Assembly (NCBI RefSeq): GCF_057098645.1
Contig: NZ_CM169472.1
DNA length: 64,000 bases
Strand: one strand, 5' to 3'
Shown here one piece after another: positions 13,637-14,970 of the stretch. Below the pieces are notes generated by a model. The model had not been told where the DNA came from and did no database searches. It saw only the letters and a program-made list of their open reading frames with translations. Each line of letters begins with the position of its first letter. Position 1 is the first letter of the stretch. The translations under genes and the position numbers were made by a program.

Positions 13637-14970
13637 CTAATCCACCAGAATAATCTTCAGTGCAAACAGAGCTGCGACCACCACCACACACAGGTTCAGA
13701 TCGCGCCAGCGCCCGGTGCACACTTTCATGATGCAGTACGACATAAAGCCAAGTGCAATCCCTTCGGTGATCGAGAAAGTAAAGGGCATCATCACCGTGG
13801 TAACAAACGCAGGCACCGATTCGGTAAAATCATCCCAGTTAACGCGCGCCAGACTTGAGGTCATCAACACGCCAACAAAGATTAACGCTCCGGCGGTTGC
13901 GTAAGGAGGAACCATCGCCACCAGCGGTGAGAAGAACATAACCAACAGGAACATAACGCCGACCACAACCGCAGTCAGCCCCGTGCGACCACCGACTGCC
14001 ACACCAGAAGTACTTTCAATATAGGCGGTAACAGACGAGGTGCCGATAAACGCGCCCGCCACCGAACTACGCTATCAACATATAGCGCCTTATTCATATT
14101 GGGGAATTTACCGTTACTATCTATTAAGCCAGCTTTATCAGTTACACCAATTAATGTTCCTGATGAATCAAATAGGTTGATCAGCATAAAGGAGAAAATG
14201 ATACCGGCGAGTTCAAGTGTTAACGCGCCGCTCAAATCTACTTCACCAATGACGCCGCTAATATCAGGCGGAATGGAATAGACGCCGCTAAAATGAACAT
14301 CACCGAAAAATAATCCACAGCAAGACGTCACCACAATAGAAACAAGCACCGCGGCATGAAAATGACGTGATGACAACACGGTTATAATAAAAAACCCTAA
14401 AATACCTAACAACACGCCGTGAGAACTTAAATCGCCAATCATCACCAGAGTGTCTTTATTGGCGACAATAACGCCAGTATTTTTTAATCCCATTAAGGCG
14501 ATAAATAATCCGATTCCGCTGGTGATACCAATACGTAAACTTAATGGAATGTTGGAGATCATCCAGTACCGGATACGAAATAGCGTGAGCAAAAATAGCC
14601 CAATTGCGCCCCAGAATATCGCGCCCATCCCGGTCTGCCAGGAGATACCCATCGCCCCCACGACCACGAACGCAAAGAAGGCGTTCAGCCCCATTGCCGG
14701 AGCCAGCGCCACGGGTAAGTTAGCAAATATCCCCATCGCAATACTGCCGATACCGGCAATCAAACAGGTGGTAACAAACACCACTTTCGGGTCCATTTGT
14801 GCCGCGCCGAGGATTTGCGGGTTCACAAAAACGATGTACACCATGGTTAAAAAAGTGGTCATCCCCGCAATCAATTCTGTGCGGACGGTGGTCCCATGCT
14901 GAGGTAGTTTAAATAATCGCGAAAGCGTCCCTGATTCATTACTCACGTAATCGGTATTGTCATTATTCAT
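13637..14970 (-). pseudogene. adeQ: adenine permease AdeQ (YicO), reading frame broken by an apparent 1-bp deletion near 14068
   Basis: Two overlapping ORFs (13975..15048 and 13637..14062) together match AdeQ from MNNDNTDYVSNESG to its C-terminus. The span is 1334 nt, one short of the 1335 needed for the 444 aa I recall. Frame switch at ...KALYVDSV|SSVAGAFIG... Confidence 0.7.

Follow-up and report, generated by a model that had tools for sequence, protein, structure and literature searches.

A one-base deletion shared with O145:H28, O55:H7 and O157:H7 Escherichia coli breaks the reading frame of the adenine permease gene adeQ

The window analysed here, i.e. the whole stretch of 64,000 nucleotides, carries a copy of adeQ (also named yicO) on its minus strand, with yicN on one side and the divergently transcribed adeD on the other. 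The adeQ copy lacks a single base, and its reading frame is split in two. The features at the locus are as follows.

13637..14970, minus strand: adeQ (yicO) pseudogene, 1334 nt, starting with the ATG at 14970 and ending with the original TAG at 13637-13639.
Between 14068 and 14069, minus strand: site of the 1-bp deletion placed by alignment, a C lost on the gene strand (G on the plus strand).
13975..14970, minus strand: 5' frame of adeQ, with 301 native residues followed by 30 out-of-frame residues (VRWRARLS...VVARG) and a TGA at 13975-13977.
13637..14062, minus strand: 3' remnant frame of adeQ, open from 14071, with the first possible start at GTG 14062 and 141 codons.
14971..15144, between the divergent genes: adeQ/adeD intergenic region, 174 bp long and different from K-12 by 5 substitutions.
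15145..16911, plus strand: intact adeD (ade), for a cryptic adenine deaminase of 588 aa, 7 of which differ from K-12.

A preliminary description of this DNA had proposed that adeQ carries a 1-bp frameshift and had recommended alignment with the K-12 gene as a check. That alignment bears the proposal out: the window adeQ and K-12 b3664 are separated by one gap only, at gene position 903, besides 25 substitutions. The missing base is a C, the third base of codon 301 (GTC). K-12 reads ...GAT AGC GTC AGT TCG..., whereas the window reads ...GAT AGC GT- AGT TCG.... On the gene strand, the site reads GATAGCGT^AGTTCGG, which contains no homopolymer. The same description had located the frame switch near 14068, at KALYVDSV|SSVAGAFIG, and the gap indeed falls between 14068 and 14069. 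Its account of the gene's dimensions also agrees with our results: (i) the span from ATG to stop is 1334 nt (3x444+2), one less than the 1335 nt that K-12 adeQ has and that a 444-aa protein needs; and (ii) the coding region appears in the list of open reading frames (ORFs) as two overlapping minus-strand ORFs, one at 13975-15048, which includes the native start at 14970, and the other at 13637-14062.

When the missing base is put back in silico, an uninterrupted 444-aa ORF is restored, with 4 aa and 25 nt differences from K-12 AdeQ. The deletion is therefore the sole lesion in adeQ. Since 25 nucleotide differences amount to just 4 amino acid differences after repair, adeQ was evidently under purifying selection until the deletion. 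Because the lesion is called against an orthologue, chance plays no part; the lesion itself, its position, its uniqueness within adeQ and its distribution can all be read directly from the DNA.

Orthology of the locus is clear from both sequence and context. The window copy shares 98% nucleotide identity with K-12 b3664 (25 nt differences and 1 gap over 1335 columns), and the gene order yicN-adeQ-adeD is the same in the window, K-12, O157:H7 and O55:H7. What the window copy does not have is the continuous ORF of ∼444 codons with a full Xan_ur_permease domain (14 transmembrane segments, TM), because the frame is broken at codon 301-302. Nor does the TM10 motif (E-S-[ST]-[ST]-G ... G-G-R-T-G) lie on one chain with TM1, TM3 and TM8; it is encoded downstream of the shift. 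Measured against the intact 1335-nt alleles of other E. coli, the gene carries a disabling lesion of the kind that defines a frameshift pseudogene, and this lesion is not private to one record. Judged by its coding capacity, window adeQ is a gene remnant and not a functional AzgA-like member of the NCS2 family.

Read from its native ATG, adeQ yields a product of 331 residues. The Xan_ur_permease domain, which covers residues 32-405 in K-12 AdeQ, is divided between the two frames: of the 389 profile positions, the 5' ORF matches 3-278 and the 3' ORF matches 281-387. The conserved substrate-binding motif of TM10 is thereby cut off from TM1-9. The 3' remnant encodes AdeQ residues ∼304-444. These contain the TM10 motif YIESTSG...GGRTG, at aa 317-331 once the protein is repaired. 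In an alignment with the solved structure of Arabidopsis AZG1, the segment that directly follows the break (SVAGAFIGTSSVTAYIESTSGVAVGGRTGL) falls on the region of highest conservation. In AzgA-like transporters, TM10 residues have been tied to substrate interaction by mutational work (PMC11527162). The 331-residue product would be without TM10-TM14, including E319 in YIESTSG and the GGRTG stretch, which form part of the AzgA-like substrate site. Because TM10-TM14 and the substrate-site motif are absent, we infer that no working permease is made; the truncated AdeQ should not transport adenine.

We then surveyed the complete E. coli genomes for the deletion. A junction 30-mer centred on the deletion, for which megablast seeding is possible only in genomes with the deletion, was found in 331 of 5426 complete genomes, once in each, on the chromosome and always under an adeQ annotation. 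The corresponding intact-junction 31-mer is present in 4246 genomes of the collection. Among the 331 junction genomes, serotype labels were checked for the named rows, which belong to O157:H7 (among them Sakai, EDL933, Xuzhou21 and numerous assemblies of the PacBio era), O157, O55:H7 and O145(:H28). The adeQ of O55:H7 strain CB9615 is identical to that of the window over its whole length (1334/1334). Compared with these 331 genomes, ∼335-342 are at least 99% identical in the adeQ region, which leaves ∼4-11 without the exact 30-mer. At least one of the latter is plausibly a close relative with an intact gene: 2014C-3075, which differs by 11 nt.

The surrounding backbone is O145:H28-type. Between positions 15000 and 39000, the window is 100% identical over 24 kb to O145:H28 genomes (RM12761, RM13516, 95-3192, FWSEC0002 and others), compared with 99.7% to O55:H7 and O157:H7 genomes. 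Relative to O157:H7 Sakai, the window shows ∼1% divergence and several indels. O145:H28 and O157:H7 have been shown to belong to one evolutionary lineage (Cooper et al. 2014, PMC3893438). As for the immediate intact ancestor allele, the repaired 1602-nt sequence has no 100% match among the genomes of the collection. A shorter repaired query of 242 nt matched intact adeQ at 100% in many unrelated E. coli strains. Three of the intact alleles were compared with the repaired window adeQ over the gene; each is annotated as a normal gene of 1335 nt, and they differ from it by 11-17 nt.

These data indicate that the window almost certainly carries a genuine, vertically inherited loss-of-function allele of adeQ that is common to the O145:H28/O55:H7/O157:H7 clade. 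The data are read most simply as one event: the ancestor common to the three serotype lineages would have lost a C in codon 301, and the deletion would have been kept in essentially all complete genomes of the clade.

The divergently transcribed adeD is not disrupted; its differences from K-12 include G213D in LTLD(G/D)HCPGLGG. On the other side, beyond yicN, lie the following features.

12356-13016, plus strand: a two-gene module of a RelE/ParE-family toxin and an HTH antitoxin, between nepI and yicN.
10986-12122, minus strand: nepI, purine ribonucleoside efflux pump, with a deletion junction within 11751-11784 (about 11767-11773).

In nepI, which lies two genes away from adeQ, 54 bp are deleted in frame between two direct repeats of CCAGAC, and NepI residues 118-135 (LGLALGGFWAMSASLTMR) are thereby lost relative to K-12, Sakai and CB9615; two purine transporters are thus altered in the window's strain. 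Of the 5426 complete genomes, only two O55:H7 ones (USDA5905 and DEC5B) contain the nepI junction 34-mer, and the 54 bases are present in all best-matching O145:H28 genomes. Over the left 13.6 kb of the window (1-13600), no complete genome in the collection matches without the nepI indel. The nepI deletion is likely a private or recurrent microhomology event damaging a transmembrane helix. The RelE/ParE-HTH module is found in O157:H7, O55:H7, O145 and some other E. coli but is absent from K-12, where nepI adjoins yicN; in strain 2014C-3075 its toxin gene is annotated as frameshifted.

Further from adeQ, the window differs from Sakai in several places and closely resembles it in another. Positions 1 to about 8400 belong to the LEE pathogenicity island, of which they form the right end (escU, escT, escS, escR, ler and espG), ∼99.85% identical to Sakai SpLE4/LEE. 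At about 43000-47000 (yidR-cbrA-yidX), divergence from Sakai rises to ∼130 mismatches/kb against a background of ∼1-2/kb; the sharpness of this spike suggests an imported recombinant segment. At about 58471-58623, ∼2.6 kb between mnmE and tnaC is missing compared with O157:H7 Sakai, in which this segment holds a pseudogene of the type III secretion system effector-like espL3.

Why would the loss of AdeQ be tolerated? The paralogue adeP is intact in Sakai (ECs_4651, 445 codons), the genome from which its status is taken, as adeP in the window's strain falls just past the right end of the window. AdeP is said, at second hand and through a paper marked retracted, to be the higher-affinity adenine permease. 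An intact adeP elsewhere on the chromosome, as is seen in Sakai, would make adeQ loss tolerable, and we infer that AdeQ loss is probably tolerated because of it. Neutral loss enabled by redundancy is the most economical reading.

Alternatively, inactivation of adeQ could have been selected in the ancestor of enterohaemorrhagic E. coli (EHEC), e.g. by limiting uptake of adenine or of toxic purine analogues, or by altering expression of the divergent adeD. Fixation of the allele throughout a successful pathogenic clade would fit such selection, but a neutral mutation in a clonal lineage is likewise expected to fix. The in-frame loss of bases from nepI, the adjacent gene for a purine-nucleoside exporter, in the window's strain might also speak for selection; however, that deletion is private or rare (2/5426 genomes) and so is unlinked to the adeQ allele. 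The genomes compared here give no evidence of independent, recurrent adeQ knock-outs. Moreover, in K-12, deletion of yicO causes polar activation of the adjacent ade and, once this polar effect is controlled, has no effect on purine-analogue sensitivity (PMC3809563). We therefore regard adaptive loss as unlikely. More doubtful still is a broader proposal in which the frameshift would be either a selected purine-handling change in the common ancestor, possibly acting via the cryptic adeD, or a working split permease. A more modest version would see in the deletion a clean, previously undiscussed shared derived marker joining O145:H28 to O55:H7/O157:H7.

Taken alone, the split permease is very improbable. 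It would require that the TM1-9 fragment and a separately initiated TM10-14 fragment (from GTG 14062 or GTG 14002) assemble into a working two-piece transporter. Some transporters do tolerate expression as split halves, and the 3' frame here is open for 141 codons from its GTG and retains the whole C-terminal third of the domain. However, there is no Shine-Dalgarno-like sequence within 20 nt upstream of either GTG. GTG 14062 sits 85 nt upstream of the 5' frame stop, and termination-reinitiation coupling is therefore not plausible, while a start at GTG 14002 would fall after the essential TM10 glutamate E319. In addition, the 5' product carries its 30-residue nonsense tail.

Restoration of full-length AdeQ by recoding, i.e. 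by a programmed -1 ribosomal frameshift or transcriptional slippage, has practically no likelihood: the frames overlap by 97 nt (gene positions 900-996) and a -1 shift anywhere there would give a near-native protein, but a scan of this overlap found neither an in-frame X XXY YYZ slippery heptamer nor a homopolymer run of at least 6, which rules the mechanism out, and the intact allele of more than 4000 genomes requires no recoding. The preliminary description had left open whether the locus is a pseudogene or a sequencing error; the former stands, in line with the junction census and existing annotations, and the latter falls. Although a single-base indel is the usual type of assembly error, and an error in the record would leave the organism's adeQ intact, the same junction recurs in 331 complete genomes from many laboratories (including Sakai, EDL933 and CB9615) at a site outside any homopolymer, and a sequencing error is therefore excluded with near certainty; the repaired 1602-nt sequence, found at 100% identity in no genome of the collection, also argues against it. 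The refuting outcome named in the preliminary description, a resequenced copy with the base restored, already has a negative answer in hundreds of genomes.

The inherited loss-of-function allele thus preferred is not new to annotators. The RefSeq/PGAP label reads "adenine permease AdeQ, frameshifted", and the curated Sakai record gives ECs_4600 as a pseudogene of the same 1334-nt extent. In the supplementary tables for O55:H7 CB9615, G2583_4455 (yicO) is listed as a pseudogene matching the pairs of ORFs that had first been called separately, ECs4600+ECs4601 and Z5153+Z5154 (Zhou et al. 2010, PMC2806823). Apart from these genome tables, our search of the literature on adeQ/yicO with O157 or pseudogene returned no paper that specifically discusses the adeQ pseudogene, and it is absent from the O145:H28 paper (Cooper et al. 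2014, PMC3893438). The adeQ pseudogene is thus already known and is an ordinary inherited gene loss; what is slightly new is that O145:H28 carries this lesion too, which makes the deletion a neat shared derived marker for the published grouping.

Beyond correct annotation, the finding has little consequence. The adeQ locus should be labelled a pseudogene, neither two hypothetical ORFs nor an intact permease, and metabolic models of strains with the deletion should omit AdeQ. In the O145:H28, O55:H7 and O157:H7 pathogens, high-affinity uptake of adenine probably depends on AdeP alone. As a marker, the 1-bp deletion is stable, easily typed and common to these three serotypes, in agreement with their published common ancestry.

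We finally compare the window adeQ with known systems. The adenine permease AdeQ of K-12 (YicO, b3664) belongs to the AzgA-like branch of NCS2/NAT (Pfam PF00860, Xan_ur_permease) and is encoded at the orthologous locus with the same neighbours, yicN and adeD. Unlike the K-12 gene, the window copy has lost a base of codon 301 and with it the capacity to encode all 444 aa, and its domain is split after profile position 278. The paralogue AdeP (PurP, YieG) shares the family and substrate of AdeQ and is its likely functional back-up; it differs in lying at another locus, ∼53 kb away in Sakai and outside the window, and in not being frameshifted. Arabidopsis AZG1 and AZG2 (structures 8irl and 9j12) are homologous AzgA-like transporters, and it is to AZG1 that the post-break segment aligns; as distant eukaryotic homologues, they were consulted only to gauge what the truncation removes. 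A further match is with the annotated pseudogenes ECs_4600 of Sakai, Z5153+Z5154 of EDL933 and G2583_4455 of CB9615, which have the same deletion junction as the window. In the gene itself, nothing distinguishes the window copy from these pseudogenes; what sets the window apart is the O145:H28-type backbone in which the same broken gene is embedded.
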